DNA of 64,000 nucleotides from an uncultured Bacteroidales bacterium. GTDB taxonomy: Bacteria; Bacteroidota; Bacteroidia; Bacteroidales; Paludibacteraceae. The position numbers were made by a program, and so were the translations under genes. The notes beneath the pieces were generated by a model that saw only the letters and a program-made list of their open reading frames with translations, made no database searches and was not told where the DNA came from. Every line of letters starts with the position of its first letter. Positions within the stretch are counted from its first letter, which is position 1. This document shows, in pieces, positions 1 through 62,678 of the stretch. The DNA is taken from NCBI GenBank assembly GCA_937901025.1, contig CALCGR010000151.1, forward strand, positions 2,714-66,713, written 5' to 3'.

Positions 1-324
1 GTAAGTAATGCCCCCGGCAGACCCGGTTGGGTGATCGTTAAGAAGAAACCCGGACCACGTAACCCGAGGGGAAAAAGAAAGAACCTATGGGTGATGCCGG
101 AAACACAAAAGATGGGTGTCGATAAACTGAAGGCGAATCAAGCAAAAGCCTCCGAGATTTACAAGGACTCCGAAAAAAGAGAGCAATTAAGGCAAGAGTA
201 TATCCGTTGGAAAAGTGAAGAGAGACGACACGGAAGGGACGGGTATCTGTTTCACGGGAAGCGATGCCGCTATCTATGGGACTATGTGAGGATAAAAGTG
301 GGGGTAGAGGGGGTAGAGGAGTAG
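1..324 (+). CDS. Unknown basic protein, C-terminal fragment (frame open from base 1)
   Basis: Frame +1 has no stop from base 1 to TAG 322-324. K/R-rich stretch KKKPGPRNPRGKRK. No family recognised. The stop codon lies inside repeat A1. Confidence 0.3.
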   Translation, partial: VSNAPGRPGWVIVKKKPGPRNPRGKRKNLWVMPETQKMGVDKLKANQAKASEIYKDSEKREQLRQEYIRWKSEERRHGRDGYLFHGKRCRYLWDYVRIKVGVEGVEE

Positions 325-344
325 GGGAGTAGAGGGGTAGGGTA
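299..344. repeat. Micro-array family A copy A1, (GTAGRGGR)n, G-rich strand on +
   Basis: gtgggggtagagggggtagaggagtaggggagtagaggggtagggt. Degenerate tagagg units continue to about 445. An 11-nt tandem duplication of gaccagaaac lies at 379-400. Confidence 0.85.
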
Positions 345-497
345 TCGTTAGGACACCTATGGAAACAGAGTAGAGGCAGACCAGAAACTGACCAGAAACC
401 GAGTGGATGTTGAGTGATAGAGGACGGTTAGAGGCGGGGGAGAAGAATGCGCATTTTGCAAAAAGTGCGCATTTTTTGTTGCAAAAACGTAAATTTA

Positions 498-529
498 TTT
501 GCGTATATGAAAAAAAATCCGTAATTTTG
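498..529 (+). promoter_or_regulatory. Bacteroidetes-type promoter P1 (for the PIN TA pair)
   Basis: TTTG 498-501, 20-nt spacer, TAATTTTG 522-529. Belongs to the conserved cassette aaatttgcgtatatgaaaaaaa..gtaattttgcag. Confidence 0.7.
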
Positions 530-559
530 CAGCGCAAAACTGCAAAAACAATTAAAATT

Positions 560-1500: not shown

Positions 1501-4500
1501 ATGAAAAAATTTTCATTATTTATGCTAATGGCAGTCGGACTGCTGATTAGCGGAAGTATGTGGGCAGATACCCCGTATTGGTATTCCTATCTTAGCGAAG
1601 AAACAGAATCAAGTGGAACAATTTATGGGCAGCAGAGTCAGACTTGGGAGCAGGATATTTGGTTTGCCTTTGATGGTTTTACGAGTACCGTGGTAGAATA
1701 TCCAAATCCACCCATATTCGACCCTGATAATGTTTGTAATGATTCACACCAACAAGACTTATGGTCTCTCTCTCATGTGGTAAAAATGATGAAAGATGGA
1801 TTTTTGAAATGGTCGGGAGTTAGCACTGCAGTTGATGAAGGTTCTAAGGGTTCTCAATCGTTCATCTTGAAAATGGACAATCATACTCTGACGATTGATG
1901 AAGATGGGATGTTTGATATAAGAGGGGTAATGCCCAATTTGTATTGTCCTCCTTTTTTCGCAGATGATTATAAAGCCTCTAACTTCACTATTAGTGGTGG
2001 CACAACAAAAGGAGTGATAGATTGTAAAAATTCTGTTGTTCCTTTCCAATTAGGTATTTGTTCTGAATTAACTTTGGAAAATGTTGAGATTAAAACAGTA
2101 AACGACATAGTGGCAATTTCATCTACCGGAGGTGCGTATGAAAAAACAAGTCGTAACGGATACATACCTAATAAGATATTAACCAAAGGAACGGTAAATA
2201 TTAGCAAGATTAGTATTGACGGATGTGGCTACTCTTCTACTACATCAAATACAAATTACATCCCTGTTGTTGAAAACTCGGGTAATTTAACAACTACAAT
2301 AAATACTAAAGGAAGGAAATCTGCTGTTCTTCCAGAACTTCCTGTTCTTGAGGTTAAGAACAATGCCAATGCCACGATGAATCTTAGCATTGTTATGAAT
2401 TATACTAAAGAAACATATGGTTATGGTACAATCAACATCACTAACGAAGGTACAATTGTCATTGAAGGCGGTGAAATTCTTGGTGGTATTTCTTATTCAG
2501 GAAATGGTACTATTCAAATGAAAGCTGGAACGATATGTGAAGCTGCATACGAAGCTTTAGTAGCTACCGAAAAGTTCTCATTGTATCCTGGTACGACGGA
2601 AGCTTCGCACACTGGTGGAAAGTACGTTTTTGAAGCAGGAAGTGCGGTTCCTGTTGCAAATATAATTAAAGATGACGTTATTACCGGTTGCTCTTCTCTC
2701 GAAAATGCATTCGGAGGAGCAACAGCCGGTTCTACTATTCAATTTGTAGGAGAGGGAAGTTCCTTGACTATGAGCCAAGATGCCACCCTCGCTTCGGGTG
2801 TGACTCTTGACTTAAATGGTGGTACTTTAGATTGTGGCGATTACCGTTTGTCTATGGGTGAAGGTTCCAATACCTCTATTATCAAAAATGGTTCGATAAC
2901 AGGTAGCAATAATAATGGGCTTATAGCTATTGAGAATAATTGCGCTATTGATTTCCAAAATATTACCTTCAGCAATGCTGCTAAACAATATGCGATTGAA
3001 TCACATCAATCAAATGCTACAAATGTATCTATCTCAATTGACGCAAATACAACTTTTGCGAATAGCGATTATGCATTGTTTATGAATACTACGCATACAA
3101 CGGTTACGAACTATTCCACTATAGGTATTTCTTCTTCAGGAACGATAACTTGGAGTGATAATGCTACTATCAACAATTACGGAACATTGAACTATGGCGT
3201 TAATACCACTGCTACCAATGGCGGATCTAATATGACTTTCAACAACCACGCTGGTACGATGAATATCCTCAAAGGTACTTATAGCGGATGTACCTTTACT
3301 GTTGATGGTGGTACGATGAATGTTGGGAGCAAGGATTTGACGGTAAAAAATACAGTTACGTTCTCTCGCACTTCTGGCACATTGAATATCGTAGATGGAA
3401 ACTTTGTCGGTGCCGATGTTTCTGGTGTTGTTTCTGTTGTAAAAGGTGGTTCCTTCAAAAAGAATGACGCAACCTATAGTTGGTTGAATACTTACAAGCA
3501 GTCTGATTTAGATGTTGTTGCAACAATTGTAAACAGTAAAGAAGCGTATGTTGTTGCCTCTTCCTCTGCCTTTGTTGCCGAGTGGAACGGAATGAAATTT
3601 ATCTATTTGGATGATGCTATCAAAAAAGCACAAGCAGGTGACGAAGTAAATTTGATTGGTAATACTACGGAAAGTGTGACTATCTCAAAGAATATTACAC
3701 TGAATCTTGTTTCCGGCACACTGACGGGTAATGTCACCATTGCTGCGGATGTTACGATTAATGGAACACTCCAAGAGGGTGTTTATCAAGGCACCATCAA
3801 TGGTGGCAATGGCTCTGCTATTAAGTTCAGTGGCAGTCGCACTTTGACTATCAATGGCGGTAACTTTACTGCTGAGGGGACAAAGCCAGTTATAGATATG
3901 AATAGTACCACAAATACTGATGTTTATGCTTTGATTGTCAACAATGGTAATTTTGTTGGTTCGTCAAATGTATCGAAAGATGGTTCAATCATTTCTACGA
4001 CAAGTGCAGGTTACAATAGAGCAAATATCACGATAAATAGAGGCGAATTCAGTATGATGGCAGGAAAACCCACAACCAATAAATTGGCATTGATTTGCTT
4101 TGCCCCAATTAATAGCAATGGTTCTACATTGACTATCAAGGAAGGTAACTTTACTATTGATTATTCTGTCAAGAATACTGGCAATTACAACTGGGCTTGT
4201 GTAGCTGCTTCTGGACAATACAACACTATGAATATTACCGGTGGTTCGTTTGAAAACAAAACGACTGCTGATAAATATAGTAGTAGTAACGTAGGTTATG
4301 GTAATGCATTGTTGGTTTACGATGCGTTTGGTTCCGTTTCTCTTGCTAACGCAAAATTCAAGAGTTACGGAAAAGCAGGTTGGATTTGGGCAAATCAGAT
4401 GGCTCTTAAAGAATTCGATGTTGATAATGTTACCTTTATTAGTGAGGCTCAAAGAGCACTTGATTTAGGTACATGGAAAGATAACCAAACAATGACTATT

Positions 4501-6771
4501 GCAGGTGGTTATTTTGAAGGAGATTTTGGTATATTTATTGGCGGCAGTGCTACTGCAACGGGAAAGATATCTATTACGGATTGCAACATTGATGCAAAAA
4601 CAACTGGTATCGGAGTTACAAGCACTCAATATACAATCGCTATCACCGGCGGAACCATCATCAGTGGTAAGAAAGGTGTCAATGTAGGATGCGAAACCAT
4701 GATGACTATTGGTGGTTCTGCATCCATCAAGGGTGGTACTTATGGAGTTTACAATGATAAGGGATCTATCAACATCACCGGTGGCCGTATCTGGGGTGAG
4801 ACCAACTCAGTGTTCAATACGAAATATTTGGAATGTGCAGGACTTCAAGGAATAGTTGAAGTAACTGGTGGTGTGTTCAATAATCGTCCTGTACCTGAGG
4901 GTTATATCGTTCGTGGAGGAACGCCTGCTTCTGCACCAAAACGCGCTGCATCAGGCCTAATTGCTGGTGGCGGTGACGGAACACCTCCAGGAGGAGGAAA
5001 TAAACCAGAGCCTTGTCCTAGTGATGATCCTCAAGAAGGCAATGCTACTATCTTAGGTGTTGGATTAGATGTTATCACAAATACAGATAAAACAACATAT
5101 GACTTAGGCTATCTTTATACCGTTGGAAGACTAACAGGAGCAAATATCTCGGTTAATCCAGATGCTGAAGATAGTGGATTAGGTCTCGATTGGTCAGAGA
5201 ACGACACTTGGACAAATGGTACAGAAAATATGATTCCGACTATTTCTGATGATGTAGTTATTGAAGGCAGAACAGTTGTTGTCGGTAAAGACGGTAAAAC
5301 AACGGATGCTGTTGCCAATCAAGTAACTGTAAAGGGTGGAGATGATGGTAATCAAGGTGACTTGATTGTAAAAACAGGAAGCAGCCTTACTGTTGGCGAA
5401 ATCTTGAGTGTTGAAAAAGGTAATAATGATGCTTTAGGTAAAGTAACTGTAGAAGCCGGTGGTAAGTTATCCGTCGGTGAGGCTAATGACTTGACCAATT
5501 TGGACATCGTTTTGCAAGATGATGGCGTAAATGGTACAGGTGTAATGCTCTTCAACCCCGCGAACCCAACGCAAAAGGAAGTGTTCGCCACTATCGAACT
5601 TCGCACCAATGCACATAAGAACAATGATGGTACTTACTTCTGGAACTACATTGGTATTCCGTTGAAATTGAATGCTGGCGAGTTCAAGGCCGAAAACTGG
5701 GAGAAAGTTCCTGTAACAGCCGGTCAACCAACGGGCACATATTTGCAATCTTGGGACTTTACTCAAGGATGGGTGAATCAAACTATAGCGGCTTTCGCTC
5801 CATTCCAAGGAATGTCTATCGCCAACAATTCAGAAGACGGCGTTATCTATCGCTTCAAAGGAACGATGGTCGGTAATGCAGATAAGAAGATGGAATTTAA
5901 ACCTCGCGGATATAACTTCTTCGCGAACTCCTATACCGCTCCAATTGATATTCAAACGTTATTAGAAGAACAAGAAGCAGAACTTGGCGATGCTGTGAAT
6001 GCTACCGTTTATATGTTCGACACGAAAAACGGTCGCTTTGAAGGAGTGGCTAAAGGTGCTTTCGAAGGTTTCCATGCTCCGTACTTCCGTGTAATTCCTT
6101 CGATGAACGGTTTCTTCATTTTGAACAATAATACTACACCAGCAGAAAACACTATGGATTATGAAGATGCCGTTTATAACTGCGCATTAGGCAATCGTCC
6201 TATCTTTGCTCCGAAACACGAAGCCATGAACTTCTCTCGCGTTCACATCAATGTAGAAGCCGATGGTTCGAAGGATGGTTTGTACCTCATTGAGAACGAT
6301 GAATTTACCTCCGAGTTTGAGAATGGCTATGATGTTGTGAAGTATATGACCAAAGGTCAATATAACATCTATGCTCAAACTACTACAGGTCGTCAATCTG
6401 AACTCTTCAATAGCAATATCGAAGGTACGATGATTGGCTTCGAAGCTGCTGCAGACCAAACGATGTACACGATGAGCTTTGACGAAGTACAAGGCGACAA
6501 CTTCGTGCTGACCGATATGGTAACGGGCGAATCTGTTGAAATGAGCGAGGGTAACACCTATACCTTCTTCGCAGAGGCTGGTCAAAGCAATGATAACCGC
6601 TTCCTCGTAACGCGTGCGAACAAAGTTCCGACCACTATTGGTGGTTTGAAGAGTAACGCGAAAGCACAAGGTATCTATTCCGTAACAGGTCATTACTTTG
6701 GCAATGTAACCGAGTGGAACCGCTTACCGCAAGGCGTTTATATGGTCAATGGCGTAAAAGTAATTAAATAA
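1501..6771 (+). CDS. Giant secreted surface protein, predicted parallel beta-helix repeats, T9SS-type C-terminal domain
   Basis: Signal peptide MKKFSLFMLMAVGLLISGSMWA. About 1400 aa of G/N/T/S-rich imperfect repeats (..GGT..NI.G..). C-terminus ..GIYSVTGHYFGNVTEWNRLPQGVYMVNGVKVIK resembles a T9SS sorting domain. Confidence 0.75.
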   Translation: MKKFSLFMLMAVGLLISGSMWADTPYWYSYLSEETESSGTIYGQQSQTWEQDIWFAFDGFTSTVVEYPNPPIFDPDNVCNDSHQQDLWSLSHVVKMMKDGFLKWSGVSTAVDEGSKGSQSFILKMDNHTLTIDEDGMFDIRGVMPNLYCPPFFADDYKASNFTISGGTTKGVIDCKNSVVPFQLGICSELTLENVEIKTVNDIVAISSTGGAYEKTSRNGYIPNKILTKGTVNISKISIDGCGYSSTTSNTNYIPVVENSGNLTTTINTKGRKSAVLPELPVLEVKNNANATMNLSIVMNYTKETYGYGTINITNEGTIVIEGGEILGGISYSGNGTIQMKAGTICEAAYEALVATEKFSLYPGTTEASHTGGKYVFEAGSAVPVANIIKDDVITGCSSLENAFGGATAGSTIQFVGEGSSLTMSQDATLASGVTLDLNGGTLDCGDYRLSMGEGSNTSIIKNGSITGSNNNGLIAIENNCAIDFQNITFSNAAKQYAIESHQSNATNVSISIDANTTFANSDYALFMNTTHTTVTNYSTIGISSSGTITWSDNATINNYGTLNYGVNTTATNGGSNMTFNNHAGTMNILKGTYSGCTFTVDGGTMNVGSKDLTVKNTVTFSRTSGTLNIVDGNFVGADVSGVVSVVKGGSFKKNDATYSWLNTYKQSDLDVVATIVNSKEAYVVASSSAFVAEWNGMKFIYLDDAIKKAQAGDEVNLIGNTTESVTISKNITLNLVSGTLTGNVTIAADVTINGTLQEGVYQGTINGGNGSAIKFSGSRTLTINGGNFTAEGTKPVIDMNSTTNTDVYALIVNNGNFVGSSNVSKDGSIISTTSAGYNRANITINRGEFSMMAGKPTTNKLALICFAPINSNGSTLTIKEGNFTIDYSVKNTGNYNWACVAASGQYNTMNITGGSFENKTTADKYSSSNVGYGNALLVYDAFGSVSLANAKFKSYGKAGWIWANQMALKEFDVDNVTFISEAQRALDLGTWKDNQTMTIAGGYFEGDFGIFIGGSATATGKISITDCNIDAKTTGIGVTSTQYTIAITGGTIISGKKGVNVGCETMMTIGGSASIKGGTYGVYNDKGSINITGGRIWGETNSVFNTKYLECAGLQGIVEVTGGVFNNRPVPEGYIVRGGTPASAPKRAASGLIAGGGDGTPPGGGNKPEPCPSDDPQEGNATILGVGLDVITNTDKTTYDLGYLYTVGRLTGANISVNPDAEDSGLGLDWSENDTWTNGTENMIPTISDDVVIEGRTVVVGKDGKTTDAVANQVTVKGGDDGNQGDLIVKTGSSLTVGEILSVEKGNNDALGKVTVEAGGKLSVGEANDLTNLDIVLQDDGVNGTGVMLFNPANPTQKEVFATIELRTNAHKNNDGTYFWNYIGIPLKLNAGEFKAENWEKVPVTAGQPTGTYLQSWDFTQGWVNQTIAAFAPFQGMSIANNSEDGVIYRFKGTMVGNADKKMEFKPRGYNFFANSYTAPIDIQTLLEEQEAELGDAVNATVYMFDTKNGRFEGVAKGAFEGFHAPYFRVIPSMNGFFILNNNTTPAENTMDYEDAVYNCALGNRPIFAPKHEAMNFSRVHINVEADGSKDGLYLIENDEFTSEFENGYDVVKYMTKGQYNIYAQTTTGRQSELFNSNIEGTMIGFEAAADQTMYTMSFDEVQGDNFVLTDMVTGESVEMSEGNTYTFFAEAGQSNDNRFLVTRANKVPTTIGGLKSNAKAQGIYSVTGHYFGNVTEWNRLPQGVYMVNGVKVIK

Positions 6772-8397: not shown

Positions 8398-8425
8398 GTG
8401 CATCGTGCATCGTGCACCTTGCACC
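8398..8425. repeat. Micro-array family C copy C1 (heptamer GTGCATC x4), intergenic
   Basis: gtgcatc gtgcatc gtgcacc ttgcacc, immediately upstream of the 8439 gene. Confidence 0.85.
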
Positions 8426-10117: not shown

Positions 10118-11059
10118 ATGAAAAAGACCATCATTATTCTTAGTTTGCTGACCCTTTCCATGTGGGTTAGCGCACAAACGGCCGATACCACCGCCATAGC
10201 CACCGATACTATCGCTGTGGCCACCGATACTATCGCCGCTGATACGACCGCTACGGATACCACCGCCATCAATCGTCTGACGATAGGTGCCCGCATCGGT
10301 GCGGCATCGCTGCTGCAAAAAACCGTCGCTGACGCGAAAGGACAATTCGGCTTTGACGCGCTCCTCGACCTCCAATATGCCCATTACTGGATCAAGAAGA
10401 ACGATAATAAGTTCGGTATCCTGACCGGCCTTACCTTAGGCTATGTACAAACAGGCTTCAGGAGCAACGGCTCGCATCAGCAATATACCTTGACCGATCC
10501 CGACGGCTGGAAAGCACAGTACGACGTGACCGTCGGTGCCCTCCGCGAGAAAGATTACCAACTCCAATTGGAAATACCCGTGATGTTCTCCATGGTCCTC
10601 GGAAAAGGATTCTTCCTCAACGCAGGTCCGAAACTCCTATTGCCCGTCTATGCTTCCTACAAGCAAACCGTCGAGAACTCGACCATCAACGCTTATTTCG
10701 AACAGACGGACGTAACCGTTCGTAACGAGGATATCACCGGTCGCGCTACCGATGAACAACTCATCGGTAAGGGCAAGTCCAACAACCGCCTCAAACTCAA
10801 CATCACCTTAGGGGCAGAGTTGGGGTACGAGTGGCAACTCAATAACGGTAACTCCCTCGGTTTGGGCGCGTACGTGAATGGCGGCCTGTACAGCATGTAC
10901 AAGAACGACAACGCTACCGACCAAGCCGGTATCGTGGCCGTGACACCCGCTGTTCCCTCCAAGGTAACCATCTTCTCCGCTACCGATACGTGGACTAAAA
11001 AAATGGGATTTGTGGACTTCGGTCTCAAACTCGCTTACCACTTTAATTGGTATAAATAA
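10118..11059 (+). CDS. Outer-membrane beta-barrel protein (porin-like)
   Basis: Signal peptide ..SMWVSAQ. Alternating amphipathic strands (GILTGLTLGYVQ, LGAELGYEW, LGLGAYVNGG). Aromatic C-terminus LKLAYHFNWYK. Lies 17 nt after the T9SS cargo gene. Confidence 0.6.
   Translation: MKKTIIILSLLTLSMWVSAQTADTTAIATDTIAVATDTIAADTTATDTTAINRLTIGARIGAASLLQKTVADAKGQFGFDALLDLQYAHYWIKKNDNKFGILTGLTLGYVQTGFRSNGSHQQYTLTDPDGWKAQYDVTVGALREKDYQLQLEIPVMFSMVLGKGFFLNAGPKLLLPVYASYKQTVENSTINAYFEQTDVTVRNEDITGRATDEQLIGKGKSNNRLKLNITLGAELGYEWQLNNGNSLGLGAYVNGGLYSMYKNDNATDQAGIVAVTPAVPSKVTIFSATDTWTKKMGFVDFGLKLAYHFNWYK
10181..10270 (+). repeat. Low-complexity tandem array just after the signal peptide
   Basis: gccaccgatactatcgc is duplicated at 10199-10215 and 10220-10236 (period 21). 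It encodes ADTTAIATDTIAVATDTIAADTTATDTTAI. Confidence 0.8.
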
Positions 11060-17666: not shown

Positions 17667-17676
17667 CAGCCGAAAT

Positions 17677-17775
17677 TATATACGAACGGATATAAATAGG
17701 CAAAATACCTATTATTTATATACGAACTAATATAATATATGTAATATCAACCTTTTTTATATGCAAACGGATATA
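17677..17775 (+). promoter_or_regulatory. Three 18-bp operator-like repeats between promoter and hipB start
   Basis: tatatacgaacggatata (17677-17694), tatatacgaactaatata (17717-17734) and tatatgcaaacggatata (17758-17775), spaced 40-41 nt. Each is an imperfect palindrome TATAT-N8-ATATA. The third overlaps the ATG. Confidence 0.55.
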
Positions 17776-17967
17776 GCAACTACAGTAAAAGCATTGCGTA
17801 AGACCTACGGGCTTACTCAAGAGGATTTGGCGATGAAGTCCGGAGTAGGGCTTTGTTTTATTCGCAGTTTGGAACAAGGGAAACACACACTCCGTATGGA
17901 CAAGGTTACGCAGTTGTTGGATTATTTCAACTATTCGCTAACTGCCGTTCCTAATGCGGTGAATTAA
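17761..17967 (+). CDS. hipB: XRE/HipB-like helix-turn-helix protein
   Basis: ALRKTYGLTQEDLAMKSGVGLCFIRSLEQGK is a classic Cro/C1 HTH. First gene of the three-gene module. Confidence 0.8.
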   Translation: MQTDIATTVKALRKTYGLTQEDLAMKSGVGLCFIRSLEQGKHTLRMDKVTQLLDYFNYSLTAVPNAVN

Positions 17968-17980
17968 GTAGTATATCGAT

Positions 17981-19238: not shown

Positions 19239-19277
19239 CTCTTTTTTAGACAAATATGCAAAAAAATATCAAAATTA

Positions 19278-19486: not shown

Positions 19487-19535
19487 AATCAAAGATGTCT
19501 CCGCTTATGCGGTATGACGATAGGGATTAAAAACC

Positions 19536-48328: not shown

Positions 48329-48338
48329 ATAACTTTAA

Positions 48339-49937: not shown

Positions 49938-49939
49938 TA

Positions 49940-53016: not shown

Positions 53017-55360
53017 GAACGAAGTCACAATTCGCGTTACTAACCCGACTGAGAATGGCCCTAGAATAGTTCGTTTACAAGCCGTGAATGACAACACGAT
53101 TCGTGTTACTTCTACCGCAGAAAATAAACTCCGCGACCGTAAGAGTCTTGTTGTAAAATGCACGATGCACGATGCACGATGCACAGTTCACAATATCGGT
53201 GACACCGTTACCTTGCAAACCGCCACTATGGCGGTGAGCGTTGACCGCACCACCGGTCAAGTATGGGTCACTCGTCACGATGGTAAACTGCTACTCAAAG
53301 AGACAGTGGGTAGTCCTTATTTCACGCCTTATGAGTGTACACAAACGGACGTAAATAATAAAGATATCACTTATAACGGCTGGACGTATGCCGTTACGTT
53401 TGATAACCTCTATAACGAAGAAGGTCTTTTTGGCCTTGGTCAACACCAATCGGACGAATGGAACTGGAAAGGACGCGATGAGGAACTCTATCAGTATAAT
53501 ACGAAGGTTTCGCTCCCGATCATCTTCTCAACCGAAGGTTATGGTCTGATGTTCGACACCTACAGCCTCAGTCGTTGGGGTAATCCCGAACCCTATAAGG
53601 CATTGGAAGACTTGTTTGTAGTGGATACTGTGGCTCGTCGTATAGACGCGAAGACGATTGTTTACGAAGGCACCATCACACCGCATAAGACCGGTGAATA
53701 TCGATTCCTTCATTACTACTCCGGTTACCAACAACTCTTTATTGATGGGCAGCCTTTGAGCCCTACTATTTGGAGGACGGCTTGGAATCCGAATGAGCGT
53801 AAATATCGTTATTACATGGAAGAGGGATGTAATTATCATATCCGTCTTACGTGGCAACCCGATGGCGATGTAGCTTATTGCTCTCTTACCGCCCATGCGC
53901 CTGAGACACCTGAGACGCACCAACAACTACGGTTTTGGTCGGAGATGAACCCCAACCTCGACTACTATGTCTTTGCGGGCGAGAATATGGATAGTCTTAT
54001 TCACTCTTACCGTAAGCTCACAGGTAAAGCGACCCTCATGCCTGATTGGGTATTAGGCTACTGGCAGTCGCGTGAACGCTATAAGACCCAAGACGAAATC
54101 GTTGATGCTCTGCGCGGCTTCCATTCACGTAATCTGCCCATTGATAATATCGTCATGGACTGGAACTATTGGGAGCCTTCGCAATGGGGCGCTTTCACAT
54201 TTGAGGATTCTCGTTTCCCTAACCCGCAAGCCATGATTGATACCATTCATGCTTTGGGTGCTCATATAATGATCTCTTGCTGGCCTAAGTATTATCCGTT
54301 CACGGACCACTACCAAGAGATGTTTGCCAAAGGCTGGTTATATCCTCAATCGATTCGCGACTCGCTCATCGATTGGCTCGGGTTCCCGTATGCTTTCTAT
54401 GATGCCTACAATCCGAAAGCCGGCAGACTCTTTTTTGAACAACTATGGGAGCACCTTGGCACGATGGGTATTGACGCGTGGTGGATGGACGCTTCCGAAC
54501 CGAACATCAAAGACTGCACACCTATCGACTATCGCAAAGCCCTTTGCGGACCGACTTATCTCGGTTCATCGGACGAGTATTTTAATGCATATGCTTTGGT
54601 GAATGCGCAGTCTATATACGAAGGTTTGCAACGCAAAGGCGTACAGGATATTTTTCAACTCACTCGTAATGGTTTTCTTGGACAACAACGCTATTCCACC
54701 GCTACTTGGTCGGGCGATATCGGTACGCGTTGGGAAGACATGAAAGCGCAGATTACCGCCGGACAGAACTTCTCCGTGTCTGGTCTTCCATGGTGGAGTC
54801 AAGATATTGGTGGTTTCTCGGTAGAGAATCGTTATGCTGCGGCGCAATACGCTTTTGATGCTACCGGTATAGAGAATGCAGACCTTCAAGAGTGGCGCGA
54901 ACTCAATGTTCGTTGGCACCAATGGGGTGTGTTCACACCTATTTATCGTAGTCACGGACAGTTCCCCTATCGCGAGCCATGGAATATCGCTCCAGAAGGA
55001 CATCGCGCATACAAGGCAATAACTGCATGCCTCAACGAACGTTATAAACTGATGCCGTATCTAAAAGAGATGAATCGCCGTGTTAGCGAAGAGGATTACA
55101 CTATCATGCGACCTCTCGCTATGGACTATCCTACAGACCCCAAAGCTGTGAACTGCGGTTGGCAGTATATGTTTGGACCCGATATTATGGTTTGCCCGGT
55201 CTATAAGTATGGCGCTCGTGAGTGGAGCGTCTATTTTCCTGCCGGCACATGGTACGATTACTATACCGGAGAACTCGTTTCTAAGGGCAATGAGACACGT
55301 ATTGTTCCTGCCCCCTATGACCATAGCCCGATCTTTTTAAGAAATAAACAACAACTATAA
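52940..55360 (+). CDS. GH31 family glycosidase (alpha-xylosidase/alpha-glucosidase type, lipoprotein)
   Basis: Lipobox LALVSC. GIDAWWMDASEPN, TRNGFLGQQRYSTATWSGDI, PWWSQDIGGF, YRSHG. Start chosen at ATG 52940 (MKIFNLQL..). The ORF track starts at 52919. Confidence 0.8.
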   Translation: MKIFNLQLAHRVIILTIFLALVSCAKNEVTIRVTNPTENGPRIVRLQAVNDNTIRVTSTAENKLRDRKSLVVKCTMHDARCTVHNIGDTVTLQTATMAVSVDRTTGQVWVTRHDGKLLLKETVGSPYFTPYECTQTDVNNKDITYNGWTYAVTFDNLYNEEGLFGLGQHQSDEWNWKGRDEELYQYNTKVSLPIIFSTEGYGLMFDTYSLSRWGNPEPYKALEDLFVVDTVARRIDAKTIVYEGTITPHKTGEYRFLHYYSGYQQLFIDGQPLSPTIWRTAWNPNERKYRYYMEEGCNYHIRLTWQPDGDVAYCSLTAHAPETPETHQQLRFWSEMNPNLDYYVFAGENMDSLIHSYRKLTGKATLMPDWVLGYWQSRERYKTQDEIVDALRGFHSRNLPIDNIVMDWNYWEPSQWGAFTFEDSRFPNPQAMIDTIHALGAHIMISCWPKYYPFTDHYQEMFAKGWLYPQSIRDSLIDWLGFPYAFYDAYNPKAGRLFFEQLWEHLGTMGIDAWWMDASEPNIKDCTPIDYRKALCGPTYLGSSDEYFNAYALVNAQSIYEGLQRKGVQDIFQLTRNGFLGQQRYSTATWSGDIGTRWEDMKAQITAGQNFSVSGLPWWSQDIGGFSVENRYAAAQYAFDATGIENADLQEWRELNVRWHQWGVFTPIYRSHGQFPYREPWNIAPEGHRAYKAITACLNERYKLMPYLKEMNRRVSEEDYTIMRPLAMDYPTDPKAVNCGWQYMFGPDIMVCPVYKYGAREWSVYFPAGTWYDYYTGELVSKGNETRIVPAPYDHSPIFLRNKQQL
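52944..52965. repeat. Heptamer array (AATCTTC x2-3) at the GH31 start
   Basis: aaatctt caatctt caattag encodes the first residues KIFNLQL. The same bases are read in another frame as the GH2 tail. Confidence 0.7.
53161..53195. repeat. Micro-array family C copy C5 (reverse orientation), in frame in GH31
   Basis: cacgatg cacgatg cacgatg cacagtt cacaata, read as (M)HDARCTVHNI. Confidence 0.9.
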
Positions 55361-55383
55361 TTAACAATTAAAAATCAACTATT

Positions 55384-56487
55384 ATGAAAAAGCTTTTTAT
55401 TACTGCTTTAGCAGCACTGACACTAGTCGCTTGCGCCACCAAAGAAAACAATTTCAAGGTTCATCGTGGAACGAACCTCAGTCACTGGCTCTCTCAATCC
55501 GAAGTACGTGGAGAGGAACGTGCCAAACACATCCAAGAGGATGATATGGTTCGTCTCGAGTCCCTCGGGTTTGACTTTGTGCGTATCCCTATTGACGAAG
55601 TACAGATGTGGGACGAGGACGGCAATCAACTACCCGAAGCATGGGACTTACTCACCAACGGTATCGACCTTGCTATCAAGCACAACCTGCGTGTAGTTGT
55701 GGATCTGCACATCATTCGCTCACACTATTTCAATGCCGAAAACGAGGATGGTCAATCCGCCAATACCCTCTTTACTTCCGAGGCTTCGCAACAAAGGCTC
55801 ATCGACATGTGGTATGAACTGAGCGAGGTGCTACGCCACTATAGTGTAGATTCTGTGGCATACGAGTTCATGAACGAACCTGTAGCTCCTGAGCACGAAC
55901 AATGGAATCAACTGATTGCGAAGGTTCATAAAGCGTTGCGCGAAGTAGAGCCTCAACGGACACTCGTCATCGGTTCTAACTTATGGCAAGGAGTAGGGAC
56001 TTTTCAATATTTGAAGGTTCCCGAGAACGATAAGAACATCATCCTCTCTTTCCATTTCTATGAGCCGATGGTACTGACCCATTATAACACTTGGTGGAAT
56101 CCCATCCGTTTCTATACCGGTGACGTCCATTACCCGGGACAACTCATCTCTGACGAGGATTGGAATGCTTGTCCGGACGAGGTCAAACCAACCGTAGCCG
56201 ATTATCATCAAGAGTGGAACGAGGAAGTGCTCTATCAACGAATGAAACAGGCTATTGATGTGGCTGATTCGTTGGGTTTGCAACTCTTCTGTGGTGAATG
56301 GGGTGTTTATGAGAATGTCGATCGTGATTGGGCGTATGCTTGGACGCGCGATATGATTAAAGTTTTTAACCGCTTTAATGTGGCTTGGTGCACTTGGTGT
56401 TACGATGCCGATTTCGGCTTCTATGACCAGTTCAAAGAGGACTATAAAGATCGTGAACTTATCAATATCTTAATGGAAAAAGAATAA
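55384..56487 (+). CDS. GH5 family glycosidase (cellulase/mannanase type, lipoprotein)
   Basis: Lipobox [44 protein letters not shown]. Confidence 0.8.
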
Positions 56488-58183: not shown

Positions 58184-59701
58184 CTAAAACTCTAACATAA
58201 CGATACTATAAGCCGGCAAAGTAATGGAAAGACCTTTATAGTTCTTGAAAGTTCTAGGTTCTACTGCGTTTGGTTGATCAAACGTATTTGTGGTGTGTAT
58301 ATCCTCTGCGGTCAGCACTTGAGCCGATTTAATCTTACCTTGGATACCTCGTAGTGTCACCGTCTGCGTCTTCTTGATGTCCGTATTGATGAGGGCCACG
58401 TGTGTTCGACCTTCTTTTTTAGAAGCAGTAACTGCTATAGCGGGTACTTGTCCGTCGGGTAAGTTAGTAAACGAATTATTTTCTATTGTCGTCGGAATCC
58501 ATGTGGCATCTTTGTGTACCTTAAACATGTTAAACACGTGATATGTAGGGGTCAAAAGCATGCGCTCTCCTTCGGTGAGAATCATTGCTTGTAATACGTT
58601 TATGGCTTGGGCGATATTCGCCATTGTAATGCGATAACTGTATTGATGGAAAATAGAGAACGATAATGCCGCTACTAATGCATCACGCATGGTGGCTTGT
58701 TGATAGAGGTGACCAGGATTAGTGCCGGGTTCTACATCGTACCACGTCCCCCATTCATCTATGATGAGATCAATATGTCGCGCTGTATCGTAACGGTCCA
58801 TAATAGCAATCGTTCGATTAATAAAATCCTCTATTTGGAGAGCTTTGAGTAGTGTTGTATAATATTCATTTTCGTCAAACATTGTGGACGAACCATGATG
58901 GTTCCAGTCTTGAGGAACGGTGTAGTAATGTAGCGAATAACCATCCATCATCGTTCCCACTTTTCGCATCAGGGTTTCTGTCCAATCATAATCGCCTGTC
59001 ACTCCTCCGCAAGCCACTTTGTATAGGTGACCATTATAATTACGCGTATAGGTAGAGTAACGACGGAAGAGATCACTATAATAATCGGCGGTCATGTTGC
59101 CTCCGCAACCCCAAGCTTCGTTACCAATACCGAGGTATCGAACATCCCATGCGTTTTCGCGTCCGTTACTGCGACGCAGATTAACGATAGTGCTTTGGCT
59201 ATTAGAAGTCATGTATTCCACCCATTTGGCTAACTCTTCTGGGGTGCCACTACCAATGTTTCCGCTGATATAAGGTTTCGCTCCCACCATCTCGCAGAAA
59301 TTGAGGAACTCATGCGTGCCGAAACTATTATCCTCCATCGTTCCTCCCCAGTTGTTGTTGCTTATGAGTGTACGTTGTTCTTGAGGTCCAATGCCGTCCA
59401 TCCAATGATAGTCATCTGCAAAACATCCTCCCGGCCAACGCAAAACGGGTATCTCTAATGTACGTAATGCCTCTATTACATCTAACCGATAACCATCTTG
59501 ATTAGGAATGGTCGAGTTTGGACCGACCCATATTCCTTCGTAAATACAGCGACCTAGATGCTCTGAAAACTGACCATAGATGTCCGCTGCAATTGTTTGA
59601 TTAGATGAGGGTTGAAGGGTGACAACGACTTGAGCTTGTGTCTCAAAACAACTCGAAATGATGATGCATGAGATTAGAAAGGAATAAATTGACTGTTTCA
59701 T
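58184..59701 (-). CDS. GH51 alpha-L-arabinofuranosidase
   Basis: IYGQFSEHLGRCIYEGIWVG, LRWPGGCFADDYHWMDGIGP, LGIGNEAWGCGG, signal peptide. Confidence 0.88.
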   Translation of the reverse strand: MKQSIYSFLISCIIISSCFETQAQVVVTLQPSSNQTIAADIYGQFSEHLGRCIYEGIWVGPNSTIPNQDGYRLDVIEALRTLEIPVLRWPGGCFADDYHWMDGIGPQEQRTLISNNNWGGTMEDNSFGTHEFLNFCEMVGAKPYISGNIGSGTPEELAKWVEYMTSNSQSTIVNLRRSNGRENAWDVRYLGIGNEAWGCGGNMTADYYSDLFRRYSTYTRNYNGHLYKVACGGVTGDYDWTETLMRKVGTMMDGYSLHYYTVPQDWNHHGSSTMFDENEYYTTLLKALQIEDFINRTIAIMDRYDTARHIDLIIDEWGTWYDVEPGTNPGHLYQQATMRDALVAALSFSIFHQYSYRITMANIAQAINVLQAMILTEGERMLLTPTYHVFNMFKVHKDATWIPTTIENNSFTNLPDGQVPAIAVTASKKEGRTHVALINTDIKKTQTVTLRGIQGKIKSAQVLTAEDIHTTNTFDQPNAVEPRTFKNYKGLSITLPAYSIVMLEF

Positions 59702-59732
59702 AATAAATAATAGTGATTGATATTTTTAGTGT

Positions 59733-60302
59733 TTAGTCGCATAGGGAAAAGAGATCGGCACGAGGGTTGATGAGCATCACGGGAACCTGACTACGCGCGA
59801 TGGCGTGCCGTTCGGGCGGACCGAAAATCAGGTCGTCCAGCCCATATTCCCTACTCGCCGTCAAGATCAGCAGGTCGTTTTTCCATTCAGCTTGCCGCTC
59901 GACCGCCTCTTTGGATAAGTTAAAACTATTTTTCTTAGCCTGCAAGACGCGGTAGCGTATCGGTTCTCCGGTGCGCTGCTTGACCGCCTCTATATGGGTG
60001 ATAATCTTATCGAGGTTCTGCTTGGCCTTGGTACCATAATCGTTCGCCGGGAGCAACAATATCTCCGCTCCCGTCTTACGCGCCAGGTAGGTGCAGATCT
60101 CCGATTTATAAACCTCCTCTTCGAGGAAGGAGACGGGGACGAGGATATGGGAGTAGAGGGGTAGGGGAGTAGAGGAGTAGGGTAGATTCATTGTATCCGT
60201 GATGAACACATACGGACGACGCTCGTCGCGACACTCGTTGAGGTGCCGCTGGATAATCGACGAGCGATTCAGACAGTGAATATATCGTATATCCTCATCC
60301 AT
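59733..60302 (-). CDS. Universal stress protein (UspA) family
   Basis: HILVPVSF.., ..LILTASREYGLDDLIFGPPERHAIARSQVPVMLINP. An alternative start at 60191 (MNLPYSSTPL..) gives a typical 152-aa Usp. Array A4 follows that ATG. Confidence 0.7.
   Translation of the reverse strand: MDEDIRYIHCLNRSSIIQRHLNECRDERRPYVFITDTMNLPYSSTPLPLYSHILVPVSFLEEEVYKSEICTYLARKTGAEILLLPANDYGTKAKQNLDKIITHIEAVKQRTGEPIRYRVLQAKKNSFNLSKEAVERQAEWKNDLLILTASREYGLDDLIFGPPERHAIARSQVPVMLINPRADLFSLCD
60149..60185. repeat. Micro-array family A copy A4, in frame in the usp-like gene
   Basis: gggagtagaggggtaggggagtagaggagtagggtag. The minus-strand gene reads LPYSSTPLPLYS. Its 35-nt core is identical to A5. Confidence 0.9.
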
Positions 60303-61809
60303 GAAGGAACCGTTTCCATTTTCTAAGCAGTTGTTTCAGATATTCAAGGTGGCGCAACTGATGGTACTTTGTCCAACTAACGAAGGCCAAAAGTAAACCT
60401 TGGCAGATAAGACCTGCTACCACATAACCTATCCATCGGTCTTCGGGGTCTAAATCAAACCCTTCCGGTGCGATAAAAATATAACTGACACTCACCATCG
60501 TCATAAACAGGGCGGGGATAAGCGTTAACATATACCCATGCTCTTTCTTATGAGAATAGAGGTACAGCGTAGCAGCCCAAAGGATGAAGACGGAGATCGT
60601 TTGGTTGGTCCAAGAGAAATAGCGCCAAACAATATCGAAGTTAACAAACGCCATTCCAAATACAGCAGCGAACAACGGCAGCGCAATGAGAAGTCGATTG
60701 CGAATGGGTTTTTGGTTAAGGTGCAGGAAGTCCGCTACCGTCAATCGCGCACTGCGTAAGGCGGTATCACCCGAAGTGATAGGAGCAACCACGACACCTA
60801 AGACGGCTAAGAATCCTCCCACTTTGCCAAGCCAAGTCTTACTGATCTTATCCACTACCAATGCGGCAATGTTCTCTCCCGGGTGCTGCGCTGCAAACGC
60901 TTGCAGACCGTCAATACCATACACTCCGTGGATAGGGTCGGCAAAGAATGTGCCTGCGGCAGCCGCCCAGATAAGAGCTAAAATACCTTCCGCCACCATC
61001 GCTCCATAGAAGATCCAACGCCCTTGGCGCTCGTTGGTCAAACAACGTGCCATTAGCGGCGACTGCGTGCTATGGAAACCACTGATAGCACCACAAGCAA
61101 TACTGACGAACATCATGGGGAAGATTGGCATATCGTTGGTTTGACGGTTGTATAAGCCGTCGGTGATTTCCGGCATCTCCATACTATGCCAACCAAGCAT
61201 GATGACCATAATACCAATACCCATAAAGAGCAGCACTGCACCAAAAATAGGATAGAAACGTCCAATCAGTTTATCCACGGGCAGTAAGGTGGCTAAGGTA
61301 TAATACAAGAAGATGATACCTAACCAGATATACCACGAAGGTAGTGGGCACATGCCTTGTAATAGGGTGGCAGGTCCGGTCATGAACGTAGTCGTAAGCA
61401 GTACCAGCAGGACGAGAATGAAAATACGCACCACAAAACCTAACCCCGGGCCAATCTCATCCTTGACAATCTCCGGCATAGAAGCACCATTCTTGCGAAC
61501 GGATAACATTCCTGCCATATAATCGTGAACGCCACCACCAAAGATGGTTCCAAACACAATCCATAGGAAAGCTGCCGGACCAAAGAAAATACCCATGATG
61601 GCACCAAAGATAGGACCTAAACCCGCAATGTTCAAGAACTGAACAAGGAAAATACGCCAACCTGCCATCGGTACATAATCCACTCCGTCAGGATGCGCCA
61701 CGGCAGGCGTCTTGGCAACAGGATTGATTCCAAAGATTTTTTCTACCAACCTTCCATACAAAAAGAAGCCGGCAACAAGAAGAACAAGAGCTATAAGGAA
61801 TGTATACAT
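60295..61809 (-). CDS. cstA: Carbon starvation protein A family transporter
   Basis: Polytopic membrane protein. FGTIFGGGVHDYMAGMLSVR and ..FHSTQSPLMARC.. are typical of CstA. Confidence 0.85.
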   Translation of the reverse strand: MYTFLIALVLLVAGFFLYGRLVEKIFGINPVAKTPAVAHPDGVDYVPMAGWRIFLVQFLNIAGLGPIFGAIMGIFFGPAAFLWIVFGTIFGGGVHDYMAGMLSVRKNGASMPEIVKDEIGPGLGFVVRIFILVLLVLLTTTFMTGPATLLQGMCPLPSWYIWLGIIFLYYTLATLLPVDKLIGRFYPIFGAVLLFMGIGIMVIMLGWHSMEMPEITDGLYNRQTNDMPIFPMMFVSIACGAISGFHSTQSPLMARCLTNERQGRWIFYGAMVAEGILALIWAAAAGTFFADPIHGVYGIDGLQAFAAQHPGENIAALVVDKISKTWLGKVGGFLAVLGVVVAPITSGDTALRSARLTVADFLHLNQKPIRNRLLIALPLFAAVFGMAFVNFDIVWRYFSWTNQTISVFILWAATLYLYSHKKEHGYMLTLIPALFMTMVSVSYIFIAPEGFDLDPEDRWIGYVVAGLICQGLLLAFVSWTKYHQLRHLEYLKQLLRKWKRFLHG

Positions 61810-62678
61810 TGTTGAATAAGTTGTTGAATCGATTCAGAATTAGGAACGAGCGGCAAACGCAAAACGTTATGGATAAGCCCCATCTGACAGAGGACGGTCT
61901 TGATCCCGCTCGGGTTACCCTCTATAAAGAGGTATTTGATGAACTCGTTATAATGCGCTTGCAAGGCTTTGTCCGCGTGTCTAACGATTTGACCAAACGC
62001 CTCGGGATAGGCATTCGACGCTACGGATATCAGTCCGTGCGCTCCTGCCGCCATACCCTCCGCGGCGAGGGCGTCATCGCCGATATATATTTTAAGGGGA
62101 GTAGAGGGGTAGGGGAGTAGAGGAGTAGGGTGGTTCCGCAAGTTAATCAGGTGTTTTATTTGGTCGAGGTTGCCGGAGGCTTCCTTGACTCCCATGATCT
62201 TATCGGGTACGGATTCGTAGATACGCATCACCGTCTCGGGGAGCAGGTTCACGCCCGTGCGCCCGGGCACGTTATATAAGATAATAGGTACGGGACTGAC
62301 CTTGGCAATGGCTACGAAGTGTTGATAGAGTCCTTCTTGAGAGGGTTTATTGTAGTAAGGAGTGACAGTCAAAATGGCCTTGCAATAGTTTAGAGTTGAG
62401 AGTTTAGAGTTTAGAGATTCTATTACTTGTGCCGTGTTATTACCTCCCAGACCGAGGACGAGAGGAAGACGTCCCTTCACTTTGTTCACTACAAAGTCCC
62501 AAACGGCGGTTTTTTCCTCCTCGGTCATCGTAGCCGCCTCCGCGGTCGTACCTAAGACCACAAGGAAATCTACTTTGCCGTCGATTTGTTTTTGTACTAA
62601 GGTGTCCAATCCTTTATAATCCACCGAACCATCGGGGAGAAAAGGAGTAATCAGTGCTGTTCCGAGACCCTGTATCAT
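61791..62678 (-). CDS. dapA: 4-hydroxy-tetrahydrodipicolinate synthase
   Basis: TALITPF, VLGTTAEAATM, VTPYYNKPSQEGLYQHF, LYNVPGRTG, GVKEASGN. Carries arrays A5 and B4 in frame. Confidence 0.92.
   Translation of the reverse strand: MIQGLGTALITPFLPDGSVDYKGLDTLVQKQIDGKVDFLVVLGTTAEAATMTEEEKTAVWDFVVNKVKGRLPLVLGLGGNNTAQVIESLNSKLSTLNYCKAILTVTPYYNKPSQEGLYQHFVAIAKVSPVPIILYNVPGRTGVNLLPETVMRIYESVPDKIMGVKEASGNLDQIKHLINLRNHPTPLLPYPSTPLKIYIGDDALAAEGMAAGAHGLISVASNAYPEAFGQIVRHADKALQAHYNEFIKYLFIEGNPSGIKTVLCQMGLIHNVLRLPLVPNSESIQQLIQQCIHSL
62097..62133. repeat. Micro-array family A copy A5, in frame in dapA
   Basis: ggggagtagaggggtaggggagtagaggagtagggtgg. dapA reads HPTPLLPYPSTPL. Confidence 0.9.
62384..62417. 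repeat. Micro-array family B copy B4 (reverse on +), in frame in dapA
   Basis: The reverse complement tctctaaactctaaactctcaactctaaactatt matches B2 at 32 of 34 positions. Read as SLNSKLSTLNY. Confidence 0.9.

Follow-up and report, generated by a model that had tools for sequence, protein, structure and literature searches.

What are some two dozen short tandem arrays of 7–8-nt units doing in and around the conserved genes of one bacterium? The question is raised by a stretch of 64,000 nt (hereafter the window) from an uncultured Bacteroidales bacterium of the family Paludibacteraceae, positions 2,714 to 66,713 of contig CALCGR010000151.1 in assembly GCA_937901025.1, in which such arrays fall into recurring families and are for the most part read through as protein. 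We find that they are modules of about four units, that exact variants of them recur at unrelated loci, and that in conserved enzymes they often stand where array-free relatives have native sequence of the same length. The account that we prefer, and on which our own judgement is evenly divided, is that the arrays are lineage-specific neutral or selfish micro-repeat modules which spread by short-patch copying, are shuffled by homologous recombination and are filtered by selection.

The arrays are far more abundant than chance would allow. A first-pass annotation, made from the sequence, had listed at least 21 of them, and all 21 lie where it had placed them, although it had overlooked two more, at 11327-11356 and 55359-55384 (Table 1). 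Tandem Repeats Finder (TRF), with which we called arrays at a score of at least 30, picks up 19 of the 21; the remaining two (48198 and 48373) are copies, with 0–1 mismatches, of a dispersed 24-nt module, CATCGTGCATTGTGAAYYGTGCAC, which occurs five times in the window at no more than 3 mismatches against a chance expectation of 0. Period-7 arrays number 12, compared with a mean of 0.9 and a maximum of 3 in 30 dinucleotide-preserving shuffles, and period-8/16 arrays number 9 (mean 1.1, maximum 4 in the same number of shuffles). With periods 6-8, 14 and 16 merged, the window holds 23 arrays against a shuffled mean of 2.5 and maximum of 6, and triplet shuffles led to the same outcome. Families A, B, C, D and E each recur in the window and again in relatives, and the types once taken to be single-copy are families as well, since the 16-mer at 13051, the 8-mer at 14405 and the AATCTTC units at 52944 all recur in relatives.

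Seventeen of the 21 arrays first listed, rather than the 18 originally counted, lie inside open reading frames (ORFs), the other four (299, 8398, 41843 and 43223) being intergenic, and the intragenic arrays are indeed read through in frame within genes of clear identity. Those at 46784, 48373, 49967 and 52944 lie in signal-peptide regions, where coding status hinges on the choice of start codon; the others are translated in frame within domains or linkers. Pfam scans place a large polysaccharide-utilisation locus between yicC and gmk, holding SusC/SusD-type genes and genes for the glycoside hydrolase (GH) families GH10, GH43, GH5, GH94, GH9-GH26, GH27, GH2, GH31 and GH130 as well as a 2-epimerase and an esterase. 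Housekeeping genes border it, a DEAD helicase gene and yicC at one end and gmk, a usp-like gene, cstA and dapA at the opposite end. The exclusions made at the outset hold: the units are contiguous and have no spacers, unlike the repeats of a CRISPR array, and they have neither the hairpin potential nor the coding capacity of repetitive extragenic palindromes (REP) and bacterial interspersed mosaic elements (BIME), miniature inverted-repeat transposable elements (MITE) or insertion sequences (IS). Rfam and tRNA scans of the window were empty, and the arrays thus match no curated RNA family. Exact-protein look-ups with the window's DapA and carboxylesterase matched no record.

The arrays are also reproduced outside the assembly in which they were noticed. 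Comparison contigs, found through homologue searches with DapA, YicC and GH43 and through contig look-ups, comprise near-identical strains from two ENA assemblies (L001, L002 and L127) and two Logan runs (L119 and L120) and two more distant relatives, L121 (GCA_900767595.1, ~83% nucleotide identity) and L003 (GCA_045627765.1, ~77-80%), whose metagenome-assembled genomes (MAGs) are named at NCBI as Bacteroidales and Paludibacteraceae, respectively. Further array-bearing loci came from MAGs named for horse faeces and from one RUG-named MAG. L127 reproduces the arrays at 11327, 13051 and 15153 exactly, the array at 60149 is present base for base in L001, L119 and L121 and that at 62384 in L001 and L002, and identical array alleles were retrieved from different samples. 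Several of them being exact in independent assemblies, the arrays are not assembly artefacts.

Across 244 kb of Paludibacteraceae-type loci, with ORFs taken from a length-greedy proxy, we counted 107 period-7/8 arrays. About two thirds, 72, lie inside ORFs, where 59 are internal, 10 fall in the N-terminal 35 codons and 3 are C-terminal; of the rest, 18 sit at gene edges and 17 between genes. The ORF proxy spans ~94% of the census DNA, and about one third of the arrays (edges and intergenic) fall in the other ~6%; array density per base is thus several-fold higher outside ORFs, yet most arrays are intragenic. Arrays are found in DapA relatives of at least ~68% identity and in YicC relatives of at least 73%, and the next outgroups are without them, which places their onset within one clade, the direction of change being judged at the protein level from distant outgroups.

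The anatomy of the arrays is that of a module rather than of a tract of arbitrary length. The modal module has four units and spans 30-36 nt, tracts being mostly imperfect with 3.5-5 units. Heptamer arrays peak in length at 30-32 nt (20 of 82 with the TRF score cut-off relaxed), are nearly absent at 39-53 nt and reappear as a minor class at 54-72 nt, compared with the broad spread of array lengths at cyanobacterial and other loci from the genome scan described below. Family A arrays contain two, three, four or five TAC units in 5, 8, 17 and 5 cases, five being the maximum, and mostly open with CCCTAC and close with TACYCCC. Composition is constrained as well: among 96 arrays 24 nt or longer, 77 have a consensus unit devoid of G or of C, as do 29% of random 7/8-mers, and the count is 44 of 63 when family A is excluded, one strand being G-free in most of the other families.

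Neither a hairpin nor a quadruplex accounts for this anatomy. Folding of six representative modules gave a minimum free energy of 0 kcal/mol, and no secondary structure, in four, while the other two (a family C module and the 16-mer array) did no better than their own shuffles, and we dropped an explanation through hairpins or palindromes on these grounds. Of 29 family A arrays, just 3 fit a canonical G-quadruplex (G4) motif (G3+, loops of at most 7 nt), so G4 formation cannot be the source of the four-unit rule here, and that candidate was dropped too. So was a reading of family A as FtsK-orienting polar sequences (KOPS-like GGGNAGGG), which had been considered since GGGTAGGG occurs in the arrays: intragenic orientation tracks the strand of the gene, to which the G-rich strand is antisense. 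Junctions where an array is present in the window and absent from L121 or the reverse show no duplications, and AACTATT, considered as a conserved element end at the terminus of family B, was found only at orthologous sites among the fetched loci.

The evidence that carries the idea of copying is the recurrence of exact variants at unrelated loci. Within the window, the arrays of the usp-like gene (60149) and of dapA (62097) have one identical 34-35-nt string in common, the same family A variant with its units in the order TCCT-TCCC-CCCT-TCCC over 34 nt; the family B arrays at 43931 and, in reverse complement, 62384 match at 32 of 34 positions; and a 28-nt pattern, ACTTTCACTTTCCACnnTnAGTGCCCAA, is common to 46819 and 49975. 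Genome JAZQOG likewise has a family A variant of 34 nt that is common to its DapA array and an unrelated locus, and it is a different variant. The string held in common by Usp and DapA is read in two frames, as LPYSSTPLPLYS (PYSSTPLPLYS) in Usp and as PTPLLPYPSTP in DapA, so that the thing conserved is the DNA and not the peptide.

Family C extends this pattern to another organism. It is an ordered series, CATCGTG-CATTGTG-AAYYGTG-CAC, rather than a simple repeat, and a 1.6-kb part of the window has three copies of it; when metagenome contigs were scanned, this ordered module turned up again, with a 21-nt higher-order period, on five contigs (L122-L126) of co-assembly R14, which have 56-63% GC, carry SusC/SusD genes, have no nucleotide similarity to the window and belong to a different Bacteroidota. 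For family A, a genome scan with the octamer returned mainly filamentous cyanobacteria and Mesorhizobium, along with Paludibacteraceae and Bacteroidales gut MAGs. In Okeania, Dapis, Trichodesmium, Egbenema and Mesorhizobium (including L005, L007, L008, L010 and L037) the arrays are long, perfect (CTACTCCC)n tracts that reach 17 units at the loci fetched and for the most part avoid long ORFs, and this difference weakens the common unit as a sign of common origin.

Particular sites in conserved enzymes act as hot spots at which one family takes the place of another. Site 1 of DapA has (CTCTAAA/CTCTCAA)n in the window and L001, (CATACAT)n in L119, (AATCTTC)n in L121 and (AATCAAC)n in L003, with conserved flanks and lengths that are equal or 3 nt apart; in all, four further unit families occur there in four other lineages, and DapA relatives known as protein have more peptides of 7-aa period, such as ITNHKSQ, the expected product of (ATCACAA)3. 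Depending on the relative, the YicC loop has an array of family A, of family B, of the 16-mer family or of an 8-mer family, the inter-domain site of LigA has four different sequences in four relatives, and the GH43 site filled by family C in the window is filled by family B in the closest relative. GH2, GH31 and the GH5 signal peptide include sites at which the window and L121 differ in having an array, none, or one of another family, and where an array faces no array the net gain is 24-39 nt with 15-35 nt of local sequence replaced. A suspected deletion of an Ig-like domain of GH2 at 51658 was dropped, the L121 orthologue having the same architecture and length.

At three of these sites the arrays have taken the place of resident sequence. 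DapA outgroups (at most 66% identity) have an ordinary helix of equal length at site 1, for example ERIHRLYEELESDY; several YicC alleles (TLNSTLSTLNSQ, SPSASQPLSPSA) have the length of the native 12-13-aa loop of the outgroups; and in GH43, NYASCIVNRALSTL stands in place of a native 14-aa segment. The first-pass annotation had held that homologous, non-repetitive sequence of the same length in other genomes would refute its interpretation, and array-free outgroups have just that at these three sites. The arrays are thus often replacements and not simple insertions, a finding that alters the mechanism to be sought and does not make the arrays ordinary. In an AlphaFold model of the window's DapA (mean pLDDT, the predicted local distance difference test score, 89.4), site 2 is a low-confidence loop (pLDDT 63, residues 181-190) and site 1 takes in the end of helix 82-91 together with the short helix 95-98. 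Most arrays appear to occupy tolerant positions on the surface of conserved enzymes.

Comparison of close strains indicates how array alleles travel once they exist. The window and L001 are ~99% identical in yicC and carry different array families there, L001 and L002 differ in the family in ligA, and the window and L119 differ at both DapA sites. In L119, DapA site 2 together with a flanking cluster of synonymous differences is the L121 allele; in L002, the ligA array and 12 nt downstream resemble L003; and in L127, a 60-nt patch of synonymous differences adjoins the yicC array. Patches of this kind are also found away from arrays. The flanking clusters thus point to ordinary short-tract homologous recombination as the carrier of array alleles between lineages, and we dropped the idea of a special cassette-swapping process between 99%-identical strains.

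What survives inside genes bears the mark of selection. Every length difference observed between strains or species preserves the frame (net 0, 3, 15, 21, 24, 33, 36 or 39 nt), and all aligned homologues are full length (23 of 23 DapA, 30 of 30 YicC). Among arrays with a G-free strand, that strand is sense in 43 of 49 ORF-internal cases, as against a ratio of 11:8 for arrays upstream of genes. In the intragenic family A arrays of the census the C-rich strand is always sense; the opposite strand carries TAG, and the 8-nt period visits all three frames. The orientation of intragenic arrays thereby tracks the avoidance of stop codons. An apparent frame preference of family B is not significant once the frame containing TAA is excluded.

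Under the reading that we prefer, modules would settle wherever sequence is unconstrained, in intergenic gaps, 5' leaders, signal-peptide regions, inter-domain linkers and the surface loops or helices of enzymes, and those within genes would be transcribed and translated as filler peptides. New copies may derive from other arrays by ectopic gene conversion, by template switching or by an integration of short single strands at microhomologies like that of SPDIR (short-patch double illegitimate recombination), and the copying would often write over ~30-40 nt of the sequence already there rather than add to it. Selection would act only as a filter: to survive in a gene, a module should need a net length change that is a multiple of three, a stop-free (G-free) strand as sense, and a site tolerant of any sequence. 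Array alleles could then pass between strains and species through homologous recombination in short tracts. Both the copying step and the neutrality of its products we infer from the patterns above.

Several observations weigh against this account. No donor-recipient pair was resolved, although replacement in place and identical strings elsewhere are both seen, and the junctions offer hints of microhomology (CCCC before ATCAAC in yicC, ACTAT at one GH31 junction) that are uninformative when inspected by eye. The excess of within-genome over between-genome similarity is modest, with longest common substrings of 19.1 and 17.2 nt, respectively (permutation p = 0.01). At DapA site 1, different lineages have units (AATCTTC, AATCAAC, AAACTCT) that keep one register and are partly related, a pattern that in-place drift and homogenisation would fit as well as replacement does. 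Because census loci were mostly fetched through the family A pattern, densities outside the window are biased, and the unbiased figure is the window's own, ~0.3 arrays per kb. Short-patch copying alone does not account for the four-unit mode, for the G-free bias of intergenic arrays or for the origin of the first arrays of each family. Neutrality, too, is assumed: the window, L001, L119 and L121 have one and the same 37-nt Usp array despite diverged flanks, a perfect conservation over ~17% nucleotide divergence, and arrays beside start codons could be relevant for translation.

The main rival, to which we give a low but appreciable probability, is that the arrays arose where they now stand. 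A lineage-specific bias of replication or repair, by slippage or misalignment over 7-8 nt and homogenisation within each array, would have made resident sequence periodic with no movement of DNA between loci, and the families would be mutational or selective attractors. Length-conserving replacement at DapA site 1, the YicC loop and the GH43 C-terminus is what such a process should leave behind, as are the related, in-register units of DapA site 1, the enrichment of arrays wherever constraint is low and the limitation of their onset to one clade. Heptamers are moreover the commonest class of long simple sequence repeats (SSRs) in most genomes, for which an explanation through polymerase contacts has been proposed (Mrazek et al. 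2007, as summarised in PMC4679880). The difficulty lies in the modules themselves, since identical 34-35-nt variants with the same order of unit variants at unrelated loci, the same ordered module in an organism of very different GC content, and a defined phase at both the start and the end of the module are hard to obtain without copying, and a slippage equilibrium does not predict a sharp four-unit mode. That mode and the three-base composition are left unexplained by in-place change and by short-patch copying alike.

A bolder proposition, which we consider quite unlikely, is that an active and as yet undescribed DNA-writing or short-patch-replacement process, present in one subclade of the gut Paludibacteraceae and in another Bacteroidota at least, deposits four-unit, ~30-nt, three-base modules from a common template pool into unconstrained DNA, with a frequency that suffices to overwrite surface segments of essential enzymes repeatedly and to build signal peptides and linkers. 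If true, this would be a natural and ongoing generator of new peptide segments, with a genetic cause identifiable at one node of the tree. The more specific notion of a dedicated and possibly transferable enzyme, a reverse transcriptase or primase-polymerase that copies a short template about four times into gaps or breaks with the families as its templates, seems improbable to us. It would make sense of the quantised length (~30 nt, with minor classes at ~60 and ~85-90 nt), the defined phase and three-base composition of the modules, their onset in a single clade and the patchy presence of the same units in Paludibacteraceae, another Bacteroidota, cyanobacteria and Mesorhizobium, and the horizontal spread of a heptamer repeat has been inferred before, with no mechanism found (PMC4679880). 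However, no candidate gene is present in the window or in the fetched loci, tens of families would demand many templates, and the common unit of the cyanobacterial and Mesorhizobium arrays, which are long perfect microsatellites, may be convergent.

It seems very improbable that the arrays are functional elements, that is, sites for a single-stranded nucleic acid-binding regulator or unstructured translation leaders upstream of genes, and selected linkers or signal-peptide cores within proteins. The per-base enrichment at gene boundaries, with arrays just upstream of start codons at 8398, 41843 and 55359, would suit such roles, as would the lack of secondary structure in four of the six folded modules, the perfect conservation of the Usp array among diverged genomes and the arrays that supply signal peptides with their hydrophobic cores; for TAACTGA repeats located upstream of start codons, a role as regulator sites has been proposed (PMC4679880). 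Yet one site in orthologues may hold any of many unrelated families, presence or absence varies in close relatives with the gene context unchanged, the same DNA is read in different frames, and arrays upstream of genes show no bias in orientation. Among the hosts, moreover, are cytoplasmic housekeeping enzymes, in which the arrays supply surface-loop filler peptide with no evident role.

Phase variation, which had been suggested because 7 and 8 are not multiples of three and the gain or loss of one unit would shift the frame and toggle the host gene, we find scarcely credible. Contingency loci are long, near-perfect tracts prone to slippage in genes for surface or host-interaction functions. 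The tracts here are mostly imperfect and only about four units long, and their hosts include housekeeping genes such as dapA and yicC, and ligA in relatives, besides the DEAD helicase and usp-like genes. No frameshifted allele appeared in five comparisons at the DNA level or among the 23 DapA and 30 YicC aligned, identical alleles come from separate samples, and the sole clean change in copy number, one 21-nt unit more in the L127 version of the 10181 array than in that of the window, keeps the frame. The chance that the arrays are an artefact of assembly or polishing is negligible, the same arrays being present base for base in separate assemblies, some from ENA with metaSPAdes names and some from Logan for other runs, as well as in NCBI MAGs.

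The arrays that we interpret as copied modules belong to a broad class of bacterial heptamer and octamer repeats, and this class, which the first-pass annotation did not name, is their closest precedent. The short tandemly repeated repetitive (STRR) sequences of cyanobacteria are heptamer repeats. Among long SSRs (LSSRs, with 5-11-nt units), heptamers are the leading class (Mrazek et al. 2007, in the summary given by PMC4679880). The likeness lies in head-to-tail 7-8-nt units, in the few families that dominate each genome, in an abundance above chance and in a patchy phylogenetic distribution. LSSR and STRR arrays, however, are described as mainly intergenic and as ranging broadly in copy number, whereas about two thirds of the arrays here lie inside ORFs of conserved genes, with about four copies, ordered unit variants and frequent replacement of native coding sequence at equal length.

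Two other heptamer systems come close in different respects. Direct repeats of TAACTGA are known from Beggiatoaceae, from cyanobacteria and from five Bacteroidetes, among them Paludibacter propionicigenes (MacGregor 2015, PMC4679880), in two to six copies and commonly just upstream of start codons, and their horizontal spread has been suggested with the mechanism unknown (PMC4679880). As here, their orientation within ORFs is limited by stop codons, and occasional copies in ORFs give a 7-aa repeat (PMC4679880); unlike here, there is a single unit, overwhelmingly intergenic and within ORFs mostly in hypothetical proteins, rather than tens of families in DapA, YicC, LigA and glycoside hydrolases. 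The quadruplex-forming GGGNATC repeats of Xanthomonas and Nostoc also prefer four units (Rehm et al. 2015, PMC4692102). The four-unit rule in our arrays, however, extends to units without G tracts, and few family A arrays fit the canonical G4 motif.

The precedent that had first been offered, the Rickettsia palindromic elements, applies in part. These elements are palindromic, ~100-150 bp long and inserted in frame in conserved genes, where they add a surface peptide. The tolerated, in-frame foreign segment in a conserved gene is common to both cases; the modules, however, are 28-44 nt long, tandem and without a hairpin, and they often overwrite. Borg elements provide another intragenic comparison, and their intragenic units are reportedly multiples of three, in contrast to the 7-, 8- or 16-nt units here, where frame is kept by total length or by 21-nt higher-order periods, the latter only in the 10181 array and in family C. 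Borg tandem repeats are described as rapidly evolving, as lying inside ORFs and as creating low-complexity or disordered protein segments (PMC9879509). With regard to mechanism, the account of SPDIR has ectopic single strands annealing at microhomologies and integrating during replication with a variable net length (bioRxiv 10.1101/2023.11.22.568220). SPDIR differs in being a rare mutation class detected in the laboratory and not known to build repeat families. To our knowledge, no other mechanism described in bacteria overwrites short patches where they stand.

Literature searches for such arrays in Paludibacteraceae or Bacteroidales found no description, and the mostly intragenic, four-unit, overwriting variant appears to be undescribed. 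If the pattern is genome-wide, ~0.3 arrays per kb extrapolates to several hundred to ~1000 modules per genome, and translated repeat DNA in a large share of conserved proteins would amount to a natural saturation experiment on the tolerance of arbitrary 10-12-residue segments and to a visible case of non-coding-type repeats turning into signal peptides and linkers. A four-unit rule without quadruplex potential also calls into question the G4 explanation given for Xanthomonas and Nostoc, and onset in a single clade makes the long-standing problem of the origin and spread of bacterial heptamer repeats testable through a comparison of gene content at a single node. On the practical side, gene-start calls and length-based orthology are distorted by the arrays, which may also be used as strain markers.

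Table 1. Short tandem arrays of the window, in order of position (MFS, major facilitator superfamily; aa, amino acids)
Array	Position	Strand	Setting
Family A (GTAGRGGR)	299-344	G-rich strand on +	Intergenic; upstream ORF from window start ends at TAG inside the array
Family C (CATCGTG)	8398-8425	+	5' leader, 13 nt upstream of ATG 8439
21-nt period (7 aa)	10181-10270	+	Directly after signal peptide of ORF 10118-11059
Imperfect 8-mer, GCCTCTCA type	11327-11356	-	C-terminal part of DEAD-box helicase, aa 458-468
16-mer family (GCTGAAGGACCGCTGC)	13051-13100	+	YicC loop; 99%-identical L001 has family A there
8-mer (TGAAAGGC/TGAGAGGC)	14405-14438	-	Read as SLSASQPFSLST, GH26 domain of GH115-GH26 protein
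Family A	15153-15196	-	Read as IPLPPYSSTPLHPYTQ, GH115-GH26 aa 805-820; L127 identical
Family E (CACTAAC)	41843-41870	+	31-nt gap between GH9-GH26 stop (41841) and MFS transporter ATG (41873)
Family B, reverse (TTTAGAG)	43223-43246		Intergenic, right after MFS stop 43216; GTG inside the array, listed as an ORF start, probably not the true start
Family B (TCTCTAAACTCTCAACTCTCAACTCTCAACTATT)	43931-43964	+	Read as SLNSQLSTLNYS within 2-epimerase domain
Family A, degenerate, C-rich strand coding	46543-46584	+	Read as TPAPYTSTPLPPTTQ, ORF 45726-46763 (GH5/GH113-like mannosidase)
Family C then family D (ACTTTCA)	46784-46846	+	Jointly encode GH43 signal-peptide region (HRASCIVNCALVLSLSTLSAQ)
Family C	48198-48232	+	Read as ASCIVNRALSTL near GH43 C-terminus; native 14-aa segment of equal length in homologues
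Family C with CACTTGT-type units	48373-48421	+	Lipoprotein signal peptide of carboxylesterase, ORF 48339-49937
Family D (ACTTTCACTTTCACTTTCCAC..AGTGCCCAA)	49967-50002	+	Encodes hydrophobic core of GH27 signal peptide
Family B, perfect (CTCTCAA)x4.3	51658-51687	+	GH2, between N-terminal domain and TIM barrel; 16-mer-family array in L121
Family E (ACACTAA)	52874-52901	+	GH2 C-terminal domain; AATCTTC/AATAGTC units in L121
(AATCTTC)x2.4	52944-52965	+	97-nt overlap of GH2 3' end with GH31 signal-peptide start
Family C, reverse ((ATGCACG)n)	53161-53195	+	Read as CTMHDARCTVHNI, GH31 N-terminal domain; family B array in L121
Degenerate heptamer (AATTAAC/AATCAAC)	55359-55384	+	Directly upstream of GH5 ATG; (AATCACA) units in L121
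Family A	60149-60185	-	Read as LPYSSTPLPLYSH in Usp-like protein; 37 nt identical in L001, L119, L121
Family A	62097-62133	-	Read as NHPTPLLPYPSTP, DapA alpha6-beta7 loop (site 2); 60149 string in another frame
Family B	62384-62417	-	Read as SLNSKLSTLNYC, DapA site 1 (end of helix 82-91 through helix 95-98)

The arrays are unevenly distributed along the window. Positions 15197-41838 (26.6 kb), which cover hipA, CotH, AraC, SusC/SusD, GH10, GH43, GH5, GH94 and GH9-GH26 and are in part of lower GC content (42-46%), hold no period-7/8 array, against an expectation of ~8 at the average density of the window (post hoc Poisson p ~2e-4); this may be recently acquired DNA in which arrays have yet to accumulate. 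Relatives have arrays of other kinds as well. L003 carries long intergenic (TAAATGG)n arrays of 11.6 and 8.9 copies (12387-12470 and 13057-13120) after cstA and usp, at places where the window has none, and the R14 contigs L122-L126 have other 7/8-mer arrays, such as (AACCTCAA)5 and (AAATTGTC)4.6.

Gene content around the arrays also varies between relatives. The whole glycan-utilisation locus (window 13831-57647) is absent from L001, where usp, gmk, yicC and the DEAD helicase gene are adjacent. A GH51-like arabinofuranosidase gene (58184-59701) is inserted between usp and gmk, exactly at the site where L001 and L119 have (AATCTTC)/(TAGTCAA) arrays. The overlap of the GH2 and GH31 ORFs (52919-53016, 97 nt) is kept in L121. 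In that relative a GH5-type mannosidase is fused directly to the GH27 alpha-galactosidase (L121 19608-20852); in the window (45726-51073) the GH43 and carboxylesterase genes lie between the two, and GH27 has its own array-built signal peptide.

A further cassette, at 17669-19556 of the window, consists of a hipB-like helix-turn-helix ORF and a split HipA, with an N-terminal ORF at 17981-18316 and a C-terminal ORF at 18285-19238. It is flanked by imperfect copies of one ~60-nt upstream region and is absent from 99%-identical L127, where the GH115-GH26 and CotH genes are adjacent. Just upstream (17676-17775) are three palindromes, TTATAT-N8-ATATAA, spaced by 41 nt and operator-like in appearance. 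Elsewhere, ORF 8439-10100, which has no Pfam match, contains a 147-nt (49-aa) tandem repeat of ~2.4 copies at 8982-9391. The first 8000 nt of the window are of low GC content (38-42%) and hold a 1756-aa ORF (1501-6771) and two smaller ORFs, all without a Pfam match, and the partial ORF at the window start is highly basic.

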